Made by a program: the position numbers and the translations under genes. 64,000 bases of DNA from Minisyncoccota bacterium. GTDB lineage: Bacteria > Patescibacteriota > Minisyncoccia > Phycocordibacterales > Zambryskibacteraceae. The stretch spans positions 14,524-78,523 of the forward strand of contig DATDVZ010000009.1 of the NCBI GenBank assembly GCA_036517475.1, in the 5' to 3' direction. Shown piece by piece: positions 20,329 through 54,005 of the stretch (its first letter is position 1; each line of letters starts with the position of its first letter). Under the pieces are notes generated by a model. The model ran no database searches. It was given only the letters and a program-made list of their open reading frames with translations, and was not told the origin of the DNA.

Positions 20329-20472
20329 GGTTCGTTTTTTTATTTATTTGACAGGATTCACCCTGTCGAATCCTGCTTTGCAGGAACTCCATAAAATGGA
20401 GTTATTTGACAGGGTGAACTCTAGTTCACTATAATATTAACCTACAACTTACAACCAACAACTAACTACAGA

Positions 20473-21738
20473 ATGCCGAAACTTTTGTCTATAAGAAATC
20501 TGCCGAAAGCTATTCTTCATATTGATGGAGACTCATTTTTTGTAGCAGTTGAAGTTTCAAAAAATCCCAAATTGCGAGGTAAACCAGTCGTGACGGGAGA
20601 GGAGAGAGGAATTGCCTCTGCCCTATCATATGAAGCAAAGGCTCTCGGGCTCATCCGTGGCACGCCAATTTACCAAATCCGCAAAAAATTTCCGCAGGTC
20701 ATAGTACTACCGGGAGATTATGAAAGTTATGAAATCTATTCGCAAAAAATGTTTGACATCGTACGCCGATATACAGACACAGTGGAAGAATATTCAATTG
20801 ATGAATGCTTTGCGGATTTAACCGGCTGGCGCAAGCCCTTAAAAATGACATATTTGCAAATTCTAGAAAATGTAAAGAAAGATATTCGCAATGAATTAGA
20901 CATTAGTGTCTCGGCAGGCCTTGCACCAAACAAAGTTCTGGCAAAAGTTGCTTCTAATTGGCAAAAACCTGACGGTCTTACAATAATTCCGGGCCGCCTA
21001 TCTCATAAATATTTACAGAAAACTGCCATAGAAAAAATCTGGGGAATTGGGCCAAATACGTCAGAATTCTTGAAGAAAAAAGGAATTAAAACTGCATATG
21101 ATTTTGCAATTAAAGATGAGAATTGGGTAAAAAATAACCTTACAAAACCATTTTTTGAAATTTGGGGGGAACTTAACTGCCAAGAGGTTTACAAAATTAA
21201 TCCAATACCTAAGGAAACTTACGCCTCAATACAAAAGACTAGAACTTTTACTCCCCCATCATCTGACAGATCATTTTTAATTTCTGCTCTTTCAAAAAAC
21301 CTGGAGGAAGCCTGCGCCAAAGCAAGGGCGTATAACCTAGCAGCTAAAAAAATTTCATTTTTCCTTAAAACCCAAAGTTTCTCCTTTCGCACTTCACTGA
21401 TTACATTTGATTCTCTACTTAACTTGCCGGAGATGATAATGCCTGCCATAAGAGAAGAATTTGACAAGATTTATGTAAAAAGTGAACTGTATAGGACTAC
21501 TGGGGTTATTCTTCAGGATTTAACCGATCAGAAAATTTCACAGCTTGATTTATTCGGCGAAAACGAAAAACAAGAAAAATTCAAAGTAATACATGAACAA
21601 ATTGATAATTTGCAGGCAAAACATGGAAATAAAATAGTGCATCTGGCATCTACTAACACTGCCCTAATCCGCCAACTGGCGGATAAAAGAAGCGGGACTG
21701 AAATAAAGAATGATGGAAGAGATCTATTGTTTCTGTAA
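20473..21738 (+). CDS. dinB: Y-family DNA polymerase IV (DinB)
   Basis: ILHIDGDSFFVAVE has the catalytic Asp residues, and SIDECFADLTG, together with the little-finger region, matches the Y-family. Confidence 0.9.
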   Translation: MPKLLSIRNLPKAILHIDGDSFFVAVEVSKNPKLRGKPVVTGEERGIASALSYEAKALGLIRGTPIYQIRKKFPQVIVLPGDYESYEIYSQKMFDIVRRYTDTVEEYSIDECFADLTGWRKPLKMTYLQILENVKKDIRNELDISVSAGLAPNKVLAKVASNWQKPDGLTIIPGRLSHKYLQKTAIEKIWGIGPNTSEFLKKKGIKTAYDFAIKDENWVKNNLTKPFFEIWGELNCQEVYKINPIPKETYASIQKTRTFTPPSSDRSFLISALSKNLEEACAKARAYNLAAKKISFFLKTQSFSFRTSLITFDSLLNLPEMIMPAIREEFDKIYVKSELYRTTGVILQDLTDQKISQLDLFGENEKQEKFKVIHEQIDNLQAKHGNKIVHLASTNTALIRQLADKRSGTEIKNDGRDLLFL

Positions 21739-21742
21739 ACAA

Positions 21743-21945
21743 CTTATCCACTAGCGAGCGAATATTCCTTTTAAAAAATCTTGCAAAGCGCTTGGGCGCA
21801 AGCAAAGAAATTTTCAGCAGAAAATTATGCGGACTTTTCCGATTATCCACTAGCGAGCGAATATTATTTCGGAAAAGGCTACGGAGTATGACGATACGAG
21901 TCTTGAGCAAATTTTCAGCAGAAAATTATGCGGACTTTTCCGAAA
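21743..21945. repeat. Two tandem ~100-bp direct repeats with conserved 23-nt and 35-nt ends and divergent centres
   Basis: ttatccactagcgagcgaatatt ... aaattttcagcagaaaattatgcggacttttccga occurs twice (units about 21743-21842 and 21843-21945). Confidence 0.6.
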
Positions 21946-21959
21946 TAATACGAGCGAGC

Positions 21960-24064: not shown

Positions 24065-24437
24065 TTTCACCCAACACCATTTTTAATTAATTTAGTAATT
24101 AATTAAAATAATAAATAAATTATTAGATAAAATTTATAATCCTACATCCATAAAAATAGTGCTGGGTTCATACCTTCTTCATTGAGAGCTGTTAAAATTT
24201 TTACTGGAAACCAGAGCAGTACTCTGGCATTAGAAGTCTAATAAAACACTATGTGATAAAAAGAAATTAAGATGTTTTTATATTGTTAGGAGAAGTGATG
24301 AGGGTCCTGTTTTAAAAGAGCGGGACTCTCATTACTTCTCTTAAACCAAAATTTCAACTCTCTTGTCAGAGTTTTTTTTGTAATTTACCCCGTGAGATAA
24401 TTATCGTTAATATTTATGCCATTGCATTGCGCAATTA

Positions 24438-24465
24438 TATCTCATGGGGTATACCCCGTGAGATA
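24438..24465. promoter_or_regulatory. 28-bp palindrome TATCTCATGGGGTATACCCCGTGAGATA (operator-like) in the 500-bp pilB upstream region
   Basis: Near-perfect dyad. Half-site copies lie at 24386-24399 and 24547-24562, the latter 12 nt before the pilB ATG. A related palindrome lies at 55407-55430 upstream of dnaE. Confidence 0.55.
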
Positions 24466-24573
24466 AAAATCAGTTAGTTATCTGAATGCTTATTTTAAAT
24501 TAAATAATAAAATAATAAATATATATAGGTAGTTATTGCAAATAAATATCTCACGGGGTATATTTTGTTGAAT

Positions 24574-43656: not shown

Positions 43657-44181
43657 TTATGCTTTTGATGAATTCTCTGGCGCAGGAGATTCTTCTGGAG
43701 TTTGCTCTACAGGAGTTATTTCCACCCCAGCTTTAACTTCAAGATCTGGTTCGGGAATGGTCATTACTTCTGACTCAATCTCTACTTTTGGAGCTTCGGA
43801 ATCTATTGTGGGTTGTTGGTTGTTTGTTGCTTGTTGTTGGTTTTTAGTTGTTGGTGGTTGGTTACTTGTTGTTGGTTGTGTGTTGTCAGTTGTCTGTTCT
43901 TTAACTGGCGGACTTTTCTTCGGTAATACGTTTATCTTTTTACCCTCGATAATGTTGTGGCTTATGAGAAGATTGTGAACTGTGGGAGAAAGTTTTGCCC
44001 CTTTACTTATCCACTCTTTGATTTTTTCGCCTTCAAATTTCTCTGTAGTTTTTCTCGGATCATAAGAGCCGAGTACTTCAACATAACGCCCGCTTTTGGT
44101 GCTGTTCTTAGAATCAGTTAAAACAACCCTGAATGTGGGCTCGTGTTTTCTTCCTGTTCTTTGTAGACGAATTTTTAACAC
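43657..44181 (-). CDS. rpsP: 30S ribosomal protein bS16 with Thr/Gln/Asn/Pro-rich C-terminal extension
   Basis: MLKIRLQRTGRKHEPTFRVVLTDS is the bS16 N-terminus. The about 90-aa low-complexity tail is encoded by (GTTGTTGGTTGT)-like repeats. Confidence 0.9.
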   Translation of the reverse strand: MLKIRLQRTGRKHEPTFRVVLTDSKNSTKSGRYVEVLGSYDPRKTTEKFEGEKIKEWISKGAKLSPTVHNLLISHNIIEGKKINVLPKKSPPVKEQTTDNTQPTTSNQPPTTKNQQQATNNQQPTIDSEAPKVEIESEVMTIPEPDLEVKAGVEITPVEQTPEESPAPENSSKA

Positions 44182-44245
44182 AATCGAAATATCCTAACAG
44201 ATTTAATAAAAAAGAAAAGATCCGAATAAATTCGGATCAAGGAAG

Positions 44246-44584
44246 CTACCAATGAATATATACATGATTTGGAATGAAACGAGATCCACTTTCTTGGATT
44301 TGGAGCTGAAGCCCCCTTCTTTCGGCCCATTCTTTAAGCCCTTTAACCATACATTCGGAACAATAGGTTTGACGCCCGAATTGATGCTCAAATTCGTAAA
44401 CAAGGCTCGAACGCAACCCATAATCTGCCTCCTGCCGCAGTTTGCTAGGAAGTTTGGAGGTAATGCGTCGAACCTCAAAGAGCGCCTGCTCTTCATCCTG
44501 TTTTTTCCTTTCCTGTCGCCTTATTCCCTCATCTGCCAAAGCCCTCCTCGAGATGGTGCGCAATTCCCGCAGTAGCTTTTGCAT
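44246..44584 (-). CDS. Hypothetical protein (112 aa), GC-rich; the antisense ORF 44252-44575 is the less likely alternative
   Basis: Charged composition typical of a real protein on the minus strand. No homolog was recognised. Confidence 0.35.
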   Translation of the reverse strand: MQKLLRELRTISRRALADEGIRRQERKKQDEEQALFEVRRITSKLPSKLRQEADYGLRSSLVYEFEHQFGRQTYCSECMVKGLKEWAERRGLQLQIQESGSRFIPNHVYIHW

Positions 44585-44717
44585 GTAATTTCTCCACTTC
44601 TTAAAATAAAATCGAATCCAGACGTTTTATACCATAAATAAAACTGAAATCCAATAGTAAAATGCGCTTATATAAAGCAAAGAAATTTGATATAAATTTG
44701 ACATAAAATACACATTA

Positions 44718-44759: not shown

Positions 44760-45251
44760 ATGAGTTTAGTGGATGATATTCTAAATGGGCTTTACCAAGG
44801 CAAATACAGGAATTATCGTTTTCTCTTTGATCTTGTTTACAAAAAAGATGAGAATGGAAATCTGAAAATAAAAGAAAATACTTTTCGTAGCACCTTAAGC
44901 AGATTGGGCAAAAAAGGTTTAGTTCAAAATAAATATGGTGCTTGGAAAATTACTGAAGATGGTTTGGAATTCTTAAATTCAAAAAATAAAAAAATAAAAG
45001 AATTCTTTTATGAAAAACCTAGAAATAAAAATATAGTGAGAAATTTGATAGTGTGTTTTGATATCCCAGAAAAAGAAAGAAGAAGTAGGGACTGGCTGCG
45101 TTCAGAATTAATTGGTTTTGGATTTGAACCAATACAAAAAAGTGTATGGTTTGGACCTCCGTTGCCAAAAGAATTTGTTGAGTTTCTTTCTGAAAGAAAG
45201 ATTCTAGATTACATCCGTTTTTTTAAAGCTGAAAGAGAGGATGTTGAGTAG
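44760..45251 (+). CDS. Winged-helix + Cas2-like (PaaX-like) putative transcriptional regulator
   Basis: The N-terminal 90 aa are wHTH-like. The C-terminal LIVCFDIPEKERRSRDWLRSELIGFGFEPIQKSVWFG follows the Cas2/VapD beta-alpha-beta pattern (hhhhYDI...R.+h...L..aG.R.Q.SVF). Flanked by perfect palindromes. Confidence 0.6.
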   Translation: MSLVDDILNGLYQGKYRNYRFLFDLVYKKDENGNLKIKENTFRSTLSRLGKKGLVQNKYGAWKITEDGLEFLNSKNKKIKEFFYEKPRNKNIVRNLIVCFDIPEKERRSRDWLRSELIGFGFEPIQKSVWFGPPLPKEFVEFLSERKILDYIRFFKAEREDVE

Positions 45252-47329: not shown

Positions 47330-47488
47330 TAACCCCGCACCAATTTTGAGCAGAGTAACAAAGCGAAGCGCGAGTGGACAAGTAGCCACATCCTTCGTGA
47401 GGCGCAGCGCTTCGCCTATGACCGGAGGCACCTATTCGGTGCACGCACTGCACAAACAATAACAGAGGCAAAATTGGTGCGGGGTTAT
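47330..47488. ncRNA. GC-rich structured element (candidate ncRNA or complex bidirectional terminator) bounded by a 16-bp perfect outer stem
   Basis: The outer stem aaccccgcaccaattttg ... caaaattggtgcggggtt encloses about 120 nt with nested stems (gcgaagcgc/gcgcttcgc, gcacctattcggtgc). The element is markedly GC-rich in an AT-rich intergenic context between convergent genes. Confidence 0.35.
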
Positions 47489-47546
47489 TATTTTCTAACT
47501 CTCTTCGTTCATAAGAAAAATAATAAAATAAGCCGCATTAAGCGAC

Positions 47547-48656
47547 TTATAGATTCAACTCAGAAACAACTGGAAGTTCCCTTATAACTGGAGGTCCGGA
47601 AATAGGTTCGGCAGCAATTTCAACTTTCTTTCTTCTTCCTACTTTAATCTTAAGACAAAGCTGTTTTTCTGCCTCCATTATTTGTGAGGCAACAACTTCC
47701 ATCATGGCAGGAGCATTTGGAAGACCATCAGGCAATGATTTCAAAAACGGTCTTGCTCCATGACAAGGAAGACAATAGTCACATTTAGCGCAATGCCTAC
47801 CTACATTCTTGGGAAATGAGGCGGCATTGTGGCTATCTATAAAATGATCAATGGCAAGAAACATCTCCTGAAAATCTCTTTCTTCACGGAATGTGAAAAA
47901 CATTTTGTTTGTCCGTAAATGATACCAGAGAAATCCGACAGGCCACTTACCATGCTTCATTTTGTACAGCCACATGTAGAAAGTGGGTTGGAAATATTCA
48001 TGAAGCTCAAATTGTTGTTTAATCCAATCCTTATCAGTTGGATTTACAACTTTTTCGGCGGGGTCAAATGTGGAGAACTCTGTCTTCAAATCCAGAATTA
48101 CAACCGGCGCATATTCAGGATTAAGTATGCCGTTAATTACAAGTTCAGGTCTTTTTTTTGCTATCCAGTCAAGTGAAACATTGTGGACTTGATCAAAAAC
48201 ACCAACCATCCTGACTTGGGGTTTGTAATTCCATCGATATCTTTGTTCAACTTCAACGGGTGCAGGCCTTCCATTCATCATCTCCCAGTAATTTGAAAGA
48301 CATAACATTTCAATACGGAGAAACTTATCGTCATCATCGGCTGAAGGGTCTATGAGCAGACCCTTCCCTTTAGCGTACTCAAGCTCTCTTTGCCATCTGG
48401 CATAGAAAGCATTAAGCGTACTCCTTTTTGTTCTGAAGAAAAAAGGTCGTCCATCTTTTGTTGGATGATGAATCTGGCGAACATGATCATGAACTGCTAT
48501 ACCACCGAGCCTTGGATAATCAACCGGATTTGGAACATCGGGATTATTTTTCCAAAAAAGTAATCTTGGACATGAAAGAAACATCCTCAAGTCAGAGTAA
48601 CTAACATGAAGAACTCTCCCTCTCTGTCTGGTTTTCCCTGATCTAGGCATTAGCAT
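47547..48656 (-). CDS. Cas4-like PD-(D/E)XK nuclease with C-terminal Fe-S cysteine cluster (DUF83/RecB-family)
   Basis: N-terminal YSDLRMFLSCPRLLFWK motif. Core VFDQVH...VVILDLKTE. C-terminal CAKCDYCLPC, which together with the N-terminal Cys forms a four-Cys cluster as in Cas4/AddB. No cas1/cas2 or CRISPR array nearby. Confidence 0.7.
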   Translation of the reverse strand: MLMPRSGKTRQRGRVLHVSYSDLRMFLSCPRLLFWKNNPDVPNPVDYPRLGGIAVHDHVRQIHHPTKDGRPFFFRTKRSTLNAFYARWQRELEYAKGKGLLIDPSADDDDKFLRIEMLCLSNYWEMMNGRPAPVEVEQRYRWNYKPQVRMVGVFDQVHNVSLDWIAKKRPELVINGILNPEYAPVVILDLKTEFSTFDPAEKVVNPTDKDWIKQQFELHEYFQPTFYMWLYKMKHGKWPVGFLWYHLRTNKMFFTFREERDFQEMFLAIDHFIDSHNAASFPKNVGRHCAKCDYCLPCHGARPFLKSLPDGLPNAPAMMEVVASQIMEAEKQLCLKIKVGRRKKVEIAAEPISGPPVIRELPVVSELNL

Positions 48657-49143
48657 CTCCTGAAATAACCCTTCTTAAAGTGTTAATTTCTCCTTTTAAG
48701 TCACTTACAGCCTGATCAAATTCAGAACGAGGGACAAGACTATCTTTCTTAAACATTTTCGTTTTCTCAATTTTATTGAGTGCGATGTGGTGCATATGAA
48801 CAGACCCAACTGCAGTACAAACAATGTACCAAAATTTGAGCCAGGAACTATCGTAGTGTGCAACAAGAGTTGAAAAAACAAAAATATAGAACCCATTACT
48901 ACCTACCGCAGCAAACATGTGAAGCCTCGTATTTGCCATCTGTCTTGCTCTGCTTACCAGAGTAAATGTGGCATTCTGGCCCATCAATAAAATCGTAAGT
49001 TTGATTATTTCATAAGTACCGATTCCAGAAAAAAATCCAACCGGAAAAGAAAATAGAATTATTAATGCTTCTGGCCACAGATGAAACAAAAAATTCAATG
49101 ATTTTCGCATGGACAAATTACGAATAACTGCTGCTGAGGTCAT
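48643..49143 (-). CDS. Integral membrane protein (about 4 TM segments) with charged C-terminal tail; overlaps the Cas4-like gene by 14 nt
   Basis: Hydrophobic N-terminal 120 aa. The C-terminal part RSEFDQAVSDLKGEINTLRRV is coiled-coil-like. The overlap implies co-translation. Confidence 0.55.
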   Translation of the reverse strand: MTSAAVIRNLSMRKSLNFLFHLWPEALIILFSFPVGFFSGIGTYEIIKLTILLMGQNATFTLVSRARQMANTRLHMFAAVGSNGFYIFVFSTLVAHYDSSWLKFWYIVCTAVGSVHMHHIALNKIEKTKMFKKDSLVPRSEFDQAVSDLKGEINTLRRVISGDANA

Positions 49144-49226
49144 GAAAACCTCCTGTGAATAGGATTAAATTACAAAGAGCAAACTTCAATCAAGTTATAC
49201 CTTTACAGTACTCTGTCAAGAAATTT

Positions 49227-49481
49227 TTAAAAAAACAATTCTCTTTCAATCGCTTCAGCCTGTGCGGGATCAATCCCCAGATCATGGGCGATTCTTTCGG
49301 TTAAAGTCAATAATTCTTTATTCCATGGGGTCTTTCCCCCATTTTTTAATCTTTCAAACACTTCTATGTCTATCCCACTAGTATTTTTTGGATCAGTTGC
49401 AATTTCCTCCAATTCAATAAGCAGTTGGCTTAAAAGTCTTTTGAAATTTTCATCAAAACTTCTTGGCTTTTCCGAATTCAT
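49227..49481 (-). CDS. Small acidic hypothetical protein (84 aa)
   Basis: ORF preceded by the low-complexity GTTGTTGGTTGT repeat tract (49498-49530). Confidence 0.4.
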   Translation of the reverse strand: MNSEKPRSFDENFKRLLSQLLIELEEIATDPKNTSGIDIEVFERLKNGGKTPWNKELLTLTERIAHDLGIDPAQAEAIERELFF

Positions 49482-49528: not shown

Positions 49529-51769
49529 TTATTTTGCCACCTCTACCGCCTCATCAAAATGGATTGAGAGTATTTTTGAGGCCCCAGTTCCCGCCATTGT
49601 CACTCCGTAAATTATACCTGCCCTCGACATAGTTTCTCTATTATGAGTGATAAGTATTAACTGAGAATGTTTTGATAAATTTTCAATCATATCGCTGTAT
49701 TTTTTTGAGTTTGCTTCATCTAATGCGGCATCTGTCTCATCTAAGACAATAAATGGTGGCGGATTGACTTGAGACATTGCAAAAAGTAAAGCTATGGAAG
49801 TCAAAGCCCGTTCACCTCCTGAGAGCATGGCAAGCCCTTTTATTTTTTTTCTTGGAAGCGATACCTCAATTTCAATCCCCCCCTCATTCTCAATTTCTTC
49901 AGAAATTTCATTTACCTCCAACTCCTCATTAAATTCGTCTTGTTTTTTTGTTTTTGATTTTTCATTTTTAATTTTTAATGTTGCTACCCCGCCACCAAAC
50001 ATCAAGGTGAAAAACTCCTGAAATTGCTTGTTAATTTTTTCAATTCCGATATTAAATTCAGTATCAATTTTTTCTCCAAGTTCTTCTATAAGAGAATGCA
50101 AGCTTTGTGCAGATTTATTCAAATCATCAAGTTCACCAGAAAGAAATGAGTCCCTTGAATTTACCTCCTCAAACTCCTTAATGATTTCGGCAAACCCCGA
50201 GGCCCCAGCATCCTCCAGGCGCACCTTTATTTTTTCAATTCTCCTGCGCCTTTCTTCCTGCAAACTTCTTACTTCTTCAGAAACCTGTAATTCAAATGAG
50301 TTGTAATCTAAGATCTCCTTACCAGCAAGGATCGCGCATTCTTCCAATTCCCTTTTAAGATCACCTTCCAAATGCAGAATACTTTCCATCTTTTGTCCGA
50401 GCATCTGCAACTCAAGAGAGATTTTATTCTGTTCCGACATAATCCTGAATACTGACTTTTCCGCATCACGGTTTGAATCCTTTTCTTTTTCAATTGCTTT
50501 TTGCAAAACTTGATATTCTTTTTGCAGATGACTCTCCTTCTCTGATGCACTATTGAGCTTTAAAGTCAGATCATCTTTTTCATTAGTTAATTTTTTGATT
50601 AAGTCCTCTGAATCTTTTAAAGGAATCTTGTTCTTATTTATCTGGCTGCTCAGAAATTCGTTAAATAAAGTTTTGATCTCGGCAAATATTTTTTTGACTA
50701 AATTTATGTCATTTTTTGATTCTCCTTCAGTTATTTTTTCATCAATTTGCGCCTTGAAACCCTCTATTTCCTCCAATGAAACAGCAGAAGAGGCTCCAAT
50801 ACTTGCTTCTTTTTGTTTTTTTAAAATCCTCTCCTCCCCAAGTATTTCACCTTGAATTCTTCCCAATTCCTGCAGACATTTCTCCTTTTCCATTCTTACA
50901 GAATGAATATCACTTTCAAGCACGATCAATTTGTCTGTTTTTTCATCCTTATCTTTTGATTCAAGAATCTTTTTGGCGTTCTCCAACTCCTCGTCCAGTT
51001 TCTTTTTGTTTTTTTCCAGAGGACCTCTGGCATTTTCAATTTCTTTCTTTACGCCTTCTACAAAAAGAGATTCTCTTTTTAAATACTCTTTTGCCAGATT
51101 CAGAAGTTCTTTTTTTAATTCTTCGGCTTTTTCTACTTTTTCAACTTGCCTTTTTAAAAATTTTAAATGTGGGGCAATTTCTTTTCTTAAAGCGTTCACT
51201 TGCTCAATATTCTGCAACGTCTTTTCAAGTTTTCTCTCACTTTCTTGTCTTTTATACTGATATATTTTAAGCCCGAGAGCGTCCTCAAGAATTGTCCTGC
51301 GTTCGCGCATATTGGCATTCAATATGCTGTCCGCCTCGCCTTGCGAAATTATATGGTGTCCTGATGCGCCGATATGAGCATCGGAGAGAAGCTCAATTAC
51401 ATCCCTAAGCCTGACTTGGGATCCGTTTATAAGATAGTCATTAATACCATCGCGATGAACAACTCTTTCAATTATCACTTTATCAAAATCAACATTAAAT
51501 AATTTATCTTTATTATCAAAAGTAACTTTAACTGAGGCACGGTTTGCTCTGGGGGTTTCTCCTGCTCCGTTCCAGATTAAATCCTCTCCCTTTTTGCCGC
51601 GCAAGCTCTTAATTGACTGCTCACCCAATACAAAACGAAATGCCTCCGCAACATTTGATTTGCCAGAACCATTGGGTCCCACTATTGCCGAGATTGGGGA
51701 ATTGAATTCAAATACGCTTTTTTTGGGAAAAGACTTAAAACCTGTTAGTTCGATTGACTTTAACTGCAT
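49529..51769 (-). CDS. smc: SMC-family chromosome-segregation ATPase, unusually short (746 aa)
   Basis: N-terminal Walker A in MQLKSIELTGFKSF...VGPNGSGKSNVAEAFRFVLGEQS. C-terminal LSGGERALTSIALLFAM...FIVLDETDAALD (signature, Walker B and D-loop). Long coiled-coil middle. Confidence 0.85.
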   Translation of the reverse strand: MQLKSIELTGFKSFPKKSVFEFNSPISAIVGPNGSGKSNVAEAFRFVLGEQSIKSLRGKKGEDLIWNGAGETPRANRASVKVTFDNKDKLFNVDFDKVIIERVVHRDGINDYLINGSQVRLRDVIELLSDAHIGASGHHIISQGEADSILNANMRERRTILEDALGLKIYQYKRQESERKLEKTLQNIEQVNALRKEIAPHLKFLKRQVEKVEKAEELKKELLNLAKEYLKRESLFVEGVKKEIENARGPLEKNKKKLDEELENAKKILESKDKDEKTDKLIVLESDIHSVRMEKEKCLQELGRIQGEILGEERILKKQKEASIGASSAVSLEEIEGFKAQIDEKITEGESKNDINLVKKIFAEIKTLFNEFLSSQINKNKIPLKDSEDLIKKLTNEKDDLTLKLNSASEKESHLQKEYQVLQKAIEKEKDSNRDAEKSVFRIMSEQNKISLELQMLGQKMESILHLEGDLKRELEECAILAGKEILDYNSFELQVSEEVRSLQEERRRRIEKIKVRLEDAGASGFAEIIKEFEEVNSRDSFLSGELDDLNKSAQSLHSLIEELGEKIDTEFNIGIEKINKQFQEFFTLMFGGGVATLKIKNEKSKTKKQDEFNEELEVNEISEEIENEGGIEIEVSLPRKKIKGLAMLSGGERALTSIALLFAMSQVNPPPFIVLDETDAALDEANSKKYSDMIENLSKHSQLILITHNRETMSRAGIIYGVTMAGTGASKILSIHFDEAVEVAK

Positions 51770-53090: not shown

Positions 53091-54005
53091 TTATTTTTTT
53101 ATTTTAATTTTTTGTTTATCGGAAAGAATATTAATTGCTTTAGTAACGAGAGGTAAAATATCATCGTAGAAATTTAGCTCAGCAATTTCAGGTAGTGAAA
53201 ACCATCTCGCATCAGTAAGCCCACCCGTAGTCTCAAGTTTAAGGGGTTCGAAATCCGATTTTGCAAGATAGTAGTGAACTCTTTTTTTCATTTTACCCAA
53301 TTCAGGATGGAATGCTATGTATTCATTTTTACCCAAATCATCTTCAAGAGTCACCTTCAAGCCGATTTCTTCCTTTATTTCACGAATAGTTCCGTCTTTT
53401 ACATTCTCGTCACCTTCAAGTTTGCCTTTTGAAAGAGTCCAGTGCCCAAAAACATCATGAACAAGAGCAATGAAAGTCTTATTCTTATCTATTGCATAAA
53501 CTACTGCTCCGCCGAGGTTTTGTGTAGGCAACTGATCGTCCGGAATATCCTTTATTTTTTTCTTTGATGTCTCGTTCTTGCCAGGCTCACCAAGTTCTTT
53601 ATATATAGCTCCGAGTACACCATTGACGAACTTGCCGGATGTTTCTCCGCCAAATGATTTTGCAAGTTCAATAGACTCGTTTATGGCAACCTTAGGGGGC
53701 ACTTCTTTATGATCTGCGAAAAGAAGCTCATAAAGTCCGATGCGAAGAATATTGCGATCAACAACTGAAATCTTTTCCAGAGGCCAGTCAGGAGCCGCCT
53801 TCTTAATAATATTATCCAGATCTTTGATTTTAGATAAAACTCCTTTTAACAGCTCACCCATGAATGAAAAGTCTTTCATCCCAGGAGCAAATTCCTCTGC
53901 GTCACGTTGTAATATTTCAGTCGCCTCTTTTTCTGATTTATTGTTGAAATCCCACTCAAAGAGTGATTGAAGAACGACAGATCTTGCTAGGTGCCGGTTT
54001 GCCAT
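53091..54005 (-). CDS. nusB: Fusion protein: N-terminal NusB antitermination factor and C-terminal NUDIX hydrolase
   Basis: Residues 1-140 are NusB-like (LFEWDF...VDRNILRIGLYELLF...KFVNGVL). Residues 160-300 carry the Nudix box GHWTLSKGKLEGDENVKDGTIREIKEEIGL (GX5EX7REUXEEXGU). Confidence 0.8.
   Translation of the reverse strand: MANRHLARSVVLQSLFEWDFNNKSEKEATEILQRDAEEFAPGMKDFSFMGELLKGVLSKIKDLDNIIKKAAPDWPLEKISVVDRNILRIGLYELLFADHKEVPPKVAINESIELAKSFGGETSGKFVNGVLGAIYKELGEPGKNETSKKKIKDIPDDQLPTQNLGGAVVYAIDKNKTFIALVHDVFGHWTLSKGKLEGDENVKDGTIREIKEEIGLKVTLEDDLGKNEYIAFHPELGKMKKRVHYYLAKSDFEPLKLETTGGLTDARWFSLPEIAELNFYDDILPLVTKAINILSDKQKIKIKK

Follow-up and report, generated by a model that had tools for sequence, protein, structure and literature searches.

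A stretch of 64,000 nucleotides (nt) from contig DATDVZ010000009.1, here called the window, belongs to a metagenome-assembled genome (MAG) of Candidatus Paceibacterota (assembly GCA_036517475.1). Its minus strand carried two overlapping open reading frames (ORFs), 48643..49143 (166 amino acids, aa) and 47547..48656 (369 aa), both annotated as encoding hypothetical proteins. The shorter was predicted to encode a membrane protein with four transmembrane (TM) helices and the longer a Cas4-like nuclease, named nucA here. A nuclease of this kind was always encoded beside members of the close clade of this four-TM protein, mostly within a tight operon. The features of the locus are collected in Table 1, and nuclease residues are numbered according to the 369-aa ORF throughout.

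The nuclease and the membrane protein

The nuclease matched PF12705 (PDDEXK_1), scoring 40.2 bits where the gathering cut-off is 22 (E = 4.8e-10), and precomputed matches to the same family were present in all 12 nuclease homologues. A homologue search in 5.8 billion proteins returned only 12 nucA clusters, with 34–54% identity; judged by sequence, nucA is a new and rare subfamily of a known kind of nuclease. Columns invariant among 13–14 family members were S19, C29, P30, R31, H56, E137, D155-Q156, D189-x-K191 and Q223, and Y227 was near-invariant (at least 90% of members). A preliminary description of the locus had named a Cas4/RecB N-terminal motif and a PD-(D/E)XK core (VVILDLKTE), and both were borne out by the PF12705 match and the invariant S19...C29-P-R31, D155, D189-x-K191 and Q223...Y227. 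It had also named a C-terminal CxxCxxCxxC run. The set of four cysteines held, comprising the invariant C29 and C289-x2-C292-x5-C298, and C295 dropped out of the run as unconserved and lineage-specific. Cx2Cx5C is the cysteine spacing of Cas4.

In the AlphaFold2 model of the nuclease (predicted template modelling score 0.71), residues 16–280 formed a confident core with a predicted local distance difference test score (pLDDT) of mostly 85–95; from residue 283 onward, the cysteine cluster included, the pLDDT was below 50. Foldseek matched the core to 9np6, 9iac, 9iab, 5eax and 4cej with a probability of 1.00 and E = 2.5e-7 to 6e-4. The best match was AdnAB (9np6, E = 2.5e-7), followed by ACE1 (9iac/9iab), Dna2 (5eax), AddAB (4cej) and Cas4 (8d3q). 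Searches of the PDB with phmmer and with a profile found no sequence relative of solved structure, and an NCBIfam scan assigned no family. The window nuclease had no match to PF01930 (Cas4) at E ≤ 1, one homologue (P0003) carried a precomputed PF01930 match, and the PADLOC Cas4 models matched the window nuclease weakly (E = 2.5e-4 to 0.02), as did phage exonuclease PHROGs. No superfamily 1 helicase, fused or adjacent, was found in the window or in related loci; the nuclease is a single-domain protein of 367–369 aa. By motifs, four cysteines and predicted fold, it was confirmed as a Cas4/AddB-type iron-sulfur (Fe-S) PD-(D/E)XK enzyme that falls outside the strict Cas4 profile family. The predicted RecB-type active site and the four-cysteine cluster are intact, and an active Fe-S enzyme of the RecB/Cas4 type is likely.

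The 166-aa protein had been described as having about four TM helices, in agreement with its AlphaFold2 model (pLDDT 77), in which four long helices were followed by a C-terminal helix (residues 139–160), and with hydropathy peaks at residues ~26, 46, 76 and 104. The TM helices were predicted at about residues 22–40, 44–63, 73–95 and 100–122. By the positive-inside rule the topology would be N-in/C-in, with a cytoplasmic tail helix (139–160). The invariant polar residues (Q56-N57, S64-R-A-R-Q68, H75, S82-N-G84, C109-T110, G113-S-V-H116, H118 and E126) would then lie at or near the cytoplasmic face, and the conserved segment starting at E126 might offer a docking surface for the nuclease.

Pfam, NCBIfam and PADLOC held no family for the membrane protein, and no significant structural neighbour was found in the PDB or BFVD. 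A Pfam scan of 21 members of its family gave scattered sub-threshold matches only, for example to YWFCY and 7TM-7TMR_HD, and TauE was rejected for a triple-repeat relative (E = 0.003, below threshold). The TM2–TM4 core (about residues 44–127) matched phrog_33664 (E = 2.7e-6), as did 32 of 33 short relatives, and the signature that starts at Q56 persisted as QNxSFTLVSRARN in the ~90-aa phage forms. An exhaustive profile search yielded 319 representatives of the family, among them ~90-aa three-helix proteins, proteins of ~370–440 aa with three tandem units, and long forms with coiled-coil tails. The proteins with three tandem copies (P0038, P0043, P0055, P0056 and others; L015:3401-4588, L016:3987-5276) included ones from Saccharibacteria and Paceibacterota MAGs. 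Since three units are joined in one protein, the short forms may come together as trimers, each a unit of nine helices that includes a conserved polar cluster; such a unit would fit a channel, a transporter or a membrane enzyme as well as an anchor.

In viral contigs, the short form was encoded in 154 IMG/VR stretches, where its neighbours, judged by eye, were mostly replication- or nucleotide-metabolism-like genes. In Tenacibaculum phage Larrie it lay between genes annotated as DNA polymerase III alpha and ligase. Holins are encoded beside an endolysin in phage lysis cassettes; an M15-like peptidase, identified by eye, was encoded three to four genes downstream of the short form in six of 72 viral loci, and no lysis gene was found near the pairs in candidate phyla radiation (CPR) bacteria. 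These viral relatives, the weak matches of the nuclease to phage exonuclease PHROGs, and a distant membrane homologue in a phage-like stretch with a dUTPase gene (L118) would suit a domesticated phage replication or recombination remnant. Its membrane protein would derive from the ~90-aa phrog_33664 family and its nuclease from a phage Cas4-like exonuclease, perhaps with no present cellular role. We consider this origin very improbable. None of the 72 viral short-form loci had a Cas4-like gene within 5 kilobases (kb), and the combination of nucA and the four-TM clade occurred in neither IMG/VR nor INPHARED (IMG/VR held neither partner, and nucA was absent from INPHARED). The neighbourhood of the pair contained neither an integrase gene nor att-like repeats nor any other phage gene. 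Moreover, the catalytic residues, cysteines and membrane motifs were all intact and conserved, which points to purifying selection.

Conservation of the gene pair and of a tail motif

Twelve distinct loci of the close four-TM clade had usable flanks, and in all 12 a gene for a PF12705-type, four-cysteine nuclease was immediately adjacent. nucA lay directly downstream of the membrane gene in the window and in L121, L120 and L009/L010. A second nuclease subfamily, nucB (about 440–506 aa), lay directly downstream in L007/L008, L012, L013, L014, L116 and L117 and was divergently transcribed from the membrane gene in L005/L011 and L122. The two subfamilies were homologous across the whole core (16% identity, hhalign probability 92%). 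nucB (e.g. L012:5594-7114, L013:801-2300, L014:5311-6813) had an extra C-terminal module with a conserved G-x-C-P-C ... C-P-x3-C-P-R, which resembles a small zinc ribbon and is not present in the window nuclease. The membrane partners shared 46–84% core identity, or 54–84% without the divergent L122, whichever nuclease accompanied them. In 10 of the 12 the two genes lay on one strand and either overlapped or were separated by no more than 15 nt; beyond the window and L121, these had gaps of 6–15 nt or overlaps.

The pairs occurred in at least five neighbourhoods, for example SMC/RNase R, YqeY/TraG-like, CAP...MscS (a synteny group of L007, L012, L014 and L117) and ClpP/queuosine synthesis. The MAGs were labelled Paceibacterota, Doudnabacteria and Saccharibacteria, with one Acidobacteriaceae contig that is probably mis-binned. 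Two distant membrane homologues, L118 in its phage-like stretch and L119, had no nuclease neighbour.

On the nuclease side the link is facultative. nucA was found alone, with no membrane gene and with varied, unrelated neighbours, in at least 11 distinct loci with adequate flanks (L001-3/L034, L004, L018, L019/20, L023, L025-28, L029, L030, L032, L033 and L035). The only recurrent neighbour of solitary nucA was a HAD hydrolase, which lay within a few kb and not adjacent, and a conserved neighbour was rejected. The membrane-linked nucA proteins were each other's closest relatives, with 50–54% identity to the window protein, and ended in ...RELPV/FPL..., against ...RNLPWDE in solitary nucA. A few kb downstream of one solitary homologue, on a 49-kb CPR contig, twelve consecutive small genes encoded T4SS_pilin/TrbC-domain proteins (L001:15389-20999).

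The solitary loci would suit a stand-alone repair nuclease with a membrane gene upstream by chance. This is the least probable of the explanations and highly improbable in our view: a Cas4-like gene was adjacent in every one of the 12 membrane-clade loci, although their flanks differ and their nucleases fall into two subfamilies, and 10 of these loci showed the tight same-strand arrangement. Functional coupling of the two genes is very probable. The preliminary description had looked to co-occurrence in other genomes for its two-gene module, and from the side of the membrane protein the answer was positive. It had also considered the opposite case, a core nuclease gene with varied neighbours; the neighbours were indeed varied, nucA being mostly alone, and nucA is not a core gene, because it is rare.

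The most conserved element of the nucA tails was a short linear motif, Q-L-x-[LF]-x-[LFI], which reads QLCLKI in the window and QLRLKL, QLKLKF, QLTLGL or QLRLGI elsewhere. The pattern Q[LM]x[LF]x[LFIMV] was present in 23 of 26 nucA tails, with three near-misses, and in 0.9% of shuffled tails. At the equivalent position, the nucB linker after the cysteine cluster carried QGELF, QGMLF, QRRLF, QGTLF, QLTLF or QQDLL. Six membrane homologues, mostly nucB-linked, ended with an Arg-rich stretch followed by QLELGF, QLDFGF, QLSLGI, QMTLSL, QKEFSF or QQMLPAF. The beta-clamp-binding consensus of bacterial polymerases is pentameric QLxLF or hexameric QLxLxL (PMC4564189). Because the motif was present on both partners and also on solitary nucA, its predicted target is more likely a third, universal protein than a contact between nuclease and membrane protein. 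Binding of the nuclease to the beta sliding clamp is, on these motifs, an evenly balanced prediction.

Arrangement and surroundings of the locus

Two in-frame ATG codons, at 48656 and 48650, give nuclease lengths of 369 and 367 aa. The second is the likely start, because an AGGAG precedes it by 6 nt, the record HEY4490116.1 has 367 aa, and the L121 orthologue has an equivalent start (its nuclease begins MSRSGKTRQRGR). An overlap of 14 nt had been described; the overlap itself stood, and with the start at 48650 its likely size is 8 nt (ATGCCTAG), identical in L121. The overlap and the AGGAG before the nuclease ATG suggest translational coupling of the two genes. A terminator-like hairpin marks the predicted end of the two-gene operon. 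The promoter scan listed no canonical sigma-70 promoter 5' of the membrane gene; a TTGACA...TATAAC pair with a 14-nt spacer (49219..49194) was seen there by eye and is not a canonical match.

Table 1. Positions in the window of the two genes and of their signals and motifs.
Feature	Position	Strand	Remarks
Membrane-protein gene	48643..49143	(-)	166 aa; NCBI VJC12_02580, HEY4490117.1; exact match to P0013
Nuclease gene nucA	47547..48650	(-)	367 aa; NCBI VJC12_02575, HEY4490116.1 (exact match)
AGGAGG, Shine-Dalgarno-like	49149..49154	(-)	5 nt 5' of the membrane-gene ATG; read from the sequence
AGGAG of the nuclease gene	48657..48661	(-)	6 nt 5' of the ATG at 48650
Stop/start overlap ATGCCTAG	48643..48650	(-)	8 nt
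Membrane-protein signature Q56-N-x2-F-T-x-V-S-R-A-R-Q68	48940..48978	(-)	cytoplasmic end of TM2 and next loop (predicted); invariant in 14 close homologues
Juxtamembrane segment E126-K-x-K-x-F-K-K-D-S-L-V-x-R-x-E-F	48718..48768	(-)	predicted cytoplasmic; conserved in two alignments
C29 codon	48570..48572	(-)	predicted N-terminal Fe-S ligand in the S19...C29-P-R31 motif; invariant column
Catalytic D189-L-K191, (D/E)xK (in VVILDLKTE)	48084..48092	(-)	invariant; also aligned with the nucB motif
Q223...Y227	47976..47990	(-)	predicted to act together with E137, D155 and D189-x-K191; aligned with nucB motifs
Cysteine cluster C289-x2-C292-x5-C298	47763..47792	(-)	invariant columns
Short linear motif Q332-L-C-L-K-I337	47646..47663	(-)	in the predicted-disordered C-terminal tail (pLDDT <50); suits the hexameric QLxLxL beta-clamp-binding consensus
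Intrinsic-terminator-like hairpin and T-run	47528..47550	(-)	overlaps the nuclease stop; such sites in the region no more frequent than in shuffles

The pair was flanked by housekeeping genes, the order being TrmD, sugar transferase, S16, PaaX-like regulator, RNase R, the pair, an 84-aa ORF, SMC, RNase III, a NusB-NUDIX fusion, L32, RNase HII and DnaE. A GC content above that of the surrounding core genes had been claimed for both genes and was not found: the nuclease gene had 40.3% and the membrane gene 36.9%, against an average of 39.3% (standard deviation 3.9) for the long ORFs of the window, and a compositional anomaly was ruled out. Of the two-gene module described earlier, what stood was a Cas4-like nuclease that shares an operon with a membrane protein and lies outside any cas context; the argument from composition failed, and the phage remnant found no support in the virus searches or the housekeeping flanks.

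A family-less 84-aa ORF (49227-49481 (-)) lay between the membrane gene and the gene for a short SMC-like protein (746 aa, 49529-51769 (-)). L121 had the same gene order (SMC, small ORF, membrane gene, nuclease gene), with ~60% amino-acid identity (small ORF 61%). Counterparts of the small ORF were absent from the pair loci other than L121. As it was syntenic in L121 only, and as the ORF upstream of the pair in L009 is not related to it, it was rejected as a third gene of the module. Between the convergent RNase R and nuclease genes lay a GC-rich element of 156 nt (47331-47486; 54.5% GC against 38% in the window), closed by a perfect inverted repeat of 18 base pairs (bp; AACCCCGCACCAATTTTG and its complement) and with internal hairpins and a folding z-score of about −4 on either strand. 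It matched no Rfam family and had no second copy within the window; candidate identities are a small structured RNA, an element resembling a miniature inverted-repeat transposable element, and an elaborate bidirectional terminator.

The absence of a CRISPR-Cas context had been stated correctly: there was no CRISPR-like array of interspaced repeats in the 64 kb, and the flanking genes that were scanned (40.7-58.7 kb) included no cas operon. The sole Cas-like item near the pair was a PaaX-type protein (44760-45251 (+), 163 aa), encoded 2.3 kb from the nuclease gene with RNase R between, with a winged-helix N-terminus and a Cas2-like domain (PF20803, E = 5.6e-14; PF09827 Cas2, E = 2.8e-5; TIGR01573 just above the cut-off). 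It is probably a regulator and not a CRISPR component. A scan with PADLOC-DB v2 gave no significant match for the membrane protein, its relatives or nucB (one at E = 0.051). Apart from the weak Cas4 matches of the nuclease, the search among defence models that the preliminary description had called for was thus negative, and a known defence system was ruled out by the scans of both proteins and their relatives.

Elsewhere in the window, ribosomal protein S16 (43657-44181 (-)) had a low-complexity C-terminal extension of ~110 residues, rich in T, Q, N and P and encoded by imperfect 14/21-nt tandem repeats (43812-43902). Overlapping ORFs of ~100 aa occupied both strands between the S16 and PaaX-like genes (44200-44600); the ORF 44246..44584 (-) had no Pfam match, and Rfam gave none at gathering thresholds in 44200-44600. 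A single ORF of 304 aa (53091-54005 (-)) encoded NusB joined to a NUDIX hydrolase domain. Downstream of ORF 20473..21738, an intergenic region (21744-21959) held two copies of a ~100-bp repeat with 86% identity, and short direct repeats were present at 20344-20422 and 24386-24471.

Possible roles and relation to known systems

We tentatively favour, at a little under an even chance, a chromosomal operon for a four-TM inner-membrane protein and a cytoplasmic Fe-S nuclease that would form a membrane-associated, probably clamp-coupled module for DNA-end processing. The two proteins would work together. At the cytoplasmic side of the membrane, the membrane protein would hold or regulate the nuclease, probably via the juxtamembrane segment and the tail helix, and the disordered tail of the nuclease, with its QLxLxL motif, would dock on the beta sliding clamp. 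Once docked, the nuclease would process clamp-loaded DNA by trimming or cutting its single-stranded 5' ends or flaps, as Cas4, AddB and Dna2 do, and this substrate would be DNA under replication or repair near the membrane. Recruitment of the nuclease to the membrane could go either way on the sequence features. A more specific proposal, that the membrane protein and the Cas4-family Fe-S nuclease both dock on the clamp via QLxLxL/QLxLF and so bring clamp-loaded DNA to the membrane for nucleolytic processing, is doubtful.

Several points weigh against this end-processing module. nucA occurred alone in at least 11 loci, so the membrane partner is not needed for its basic activity. The window membrane protein lacked the QLxLxF tail seen in some relatives, and short linear motifs are prone to false positives. 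The module was rare (about 26 membrane-protein and 12 nucA clusters among the 5.8 billion proteins), which is unusual for maintenance and more typical of accessory or defence genes; the pair is an accessory module and not a core function. The anchor role is conjecture, because the membrane protein had no relative of known function, in structure or in sequence, and its conserved polar cluster (QN, SRxRQ, H75, SNG, H116/H118, E126) would suit an enzyme or a channel equally well.

A defence or abortive-infection role, raised in the preliminary description, is possible. In an anti-phage or anti-plasmid system, the membrane protein would sense DNA injection, conjugation or envelope perturbation and then release, recruit or activate the nuclease against invader DNA, which may be recognised as replicating and clamp-loaded, with a logic akin to the membrane-sensor-plus-effector systems Kiwa and Zorya. 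The patchy and rare distribution would suit such a system, as would a pair kept in at least five neighbourhoods with its nuclease exchanged between two subfamilies of 16% identity, a shuffling typical of defence systems. ACE1, among the nearest solved folds, is a Cas4-family nuclease that boosts Argonaute immunity (PMC12094033), Kiwa is reported to be a membrane-embedded defence complex (PMC11785009), and Hudaiberdiev et al. suggested that solo Cas4 of small genomes acts in defence or repair (PMC5704561). Set against this, the PADLOC models missed the membrane protein and nucB and gave weak Cas4 matches for the nuclease, and the flanks were housekeeping genes instead of a defence island or mobile element. 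The composition was native, synteny was shared between relatives, the supposed sensor was strongly conserved, and a toxin-like or abortive-infection signature was not evident. We regard defence as rather unlikely, and rank DNA maintenance (repair or replication-linked end processing) slightly above it because of the native composition, the core-gene context, the synteny between relatives, the slowly evolving membrane partner, the clamp motif, and solo cas4 genes that evolve like ordinary genes (PMC5704561).

Less likely than either, alongside the phage remnant and chance adjacency, is the handling of incoming DNA. CPR bacteria have reduced biosynthesis and depend on the uptake of DNA and nucleotides, and in an epibiotic CPR cell the membrane protein could set the nuclease at the uptake machinery, where imported single-stranded DNA (ssDNA) would be trimmed or degraded to nucleotides (scavenging or competence). 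The linkage of the nuclease to a membrane protein would fit, as would the reported action of Cas4-type enzymes on ssDNA ends (PMC3466216). Yet com or pil genes were adjacent in none of the 12 loci, the rarity of the module speaks against a general nutritional role, and the clamp-binding-like motif would have no place; we consider scavenging improbable.

Among known systems, Cas4 and solo Cas4 (COG1468, PF01930) shared with the window nuclease the D, (D/E)xK and QxxxY motifs and the one N-terminal and three C-terminal cysteines (Cx2Cx5C). nucA also stands alone outside CRISPR loci in a small-genome CPR bacterium, as in the survey of Hudaiberdiev et al. 2017 (PMC5704561), in which solo Cas4-family genes were over-represented in CPR bacteria and DPANN archaea and evolved like ordinary cellular genes; that survey set PF12705 proteins aside and did not mention a membrane partner. 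The window nuclease differed in falling below PF01930, in its weak PADLOC Cas4 scores, in having about twice the length of canonical Cas4, and in a helical insertion and a predicted-disordered tail of ~85 residues with conserved motifs. Unlike CRISPR-associated Cas4, it had no adjacent cas1, cas2 or CRISPR array and had a dedicated membrane partner. AdnAB/AddAB, Dna2 and ACE1, the best structural matches to the predicted core, have an Fe-S-stapled RecB-like fold that acts on ssDNA ends or flaps, and ACE1, too, belongs to the Cas4 family, stands alone and acts together with a partner protein. nucA differed from AdnAB, AddAB and Dna2 in lacking a fused or adjacent helicase, and from ACE1 in lacking an adjacent Argonaute and in having an integral membrane protein as its partner.

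In architecture, the nearest DNA-maintenance analogue is RmuC (PF02646), in which a PD-(D/E)XK nuclease for chromosomal DNA is joined to a membrane anchor through a coiled-coil or helical linker. RmuC carries all of this on one polypeptide, has a single N-terminal TM helix and lacks an Fe-S cluster; no sequence relationship was found, neither protein of the pair matched PF02646, and L009 had a separate RmuC gene near its pair. The nearest defence analogues, Kiwa (KwaA/KwaB) and Zorya (ZorAB with ZorC/D), are likewise small operons for a multi-pass membrane protein and a cytoplasmic protein that targets DNA, as is predicted here; the pair differed in having no PADLOC component match, in its protein families and in its location outside a defence island. 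The phage forms of phrog_33664 were homologous to the TM2–TM4 core and had the signature QNxSFTLVSRxR(N/Q)...YH...SNG...GS..H...EK in common with it, but they were ~90 aa long with three TM helices, lacked TM1 and the cytoplasmic tail, and were not encoded beside nucleases. We know of no described clamp partner that is a Cas4-family nuclease or an integral membrane protein. Clamp-binding proteins such as Pol II, Pol IV, Hda and MutS carry a motif of the QLxLF/QLxLxL type at the very C-terminus or within a flexible tail (consensus in PMC4564189), as the pair family appears to do, but here the motif is on a Cas4-family nuclease and on some integral membrane relatives.

The literature searched held no account of an association between the membrane clade and Cas4-like nucleases, of clamp-binding-like motifs on both, or of the link to phrog_33664. 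Solo Cas4 in CPR bacteria was known already; the strict association, the motifs on both proteins and the phrog_33664 link are, to our knowledge, new. Since 2017 at the latest, it has been asked what solo Cas4-family proteins do in CPR bacteria and DPANN archaea (PMC5704561). One solo-Cas4 subfamily now gains an obligate-looking membrane partner from an unannotated family with hundreds of phage and CPR relatives, and the conserved tail motif, which predicts recruitment to the sliding clamp, provides a second handle on it. If either link is true, it would reveal the substrates of these nucleases in organisms with minimal repair and defence repertoires, and would give phrog_33664-type membrane proteins their first function. 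If both proteins dock on the clamp, the pair would be a DNA-surveillance module of an undescribed kind, whose membrane protein founds a new family shared with phages; it would also be the first case in bacteria of a clamp partner tethered to the membrane and of a Cas4-like nuclease coupled to the clamp.

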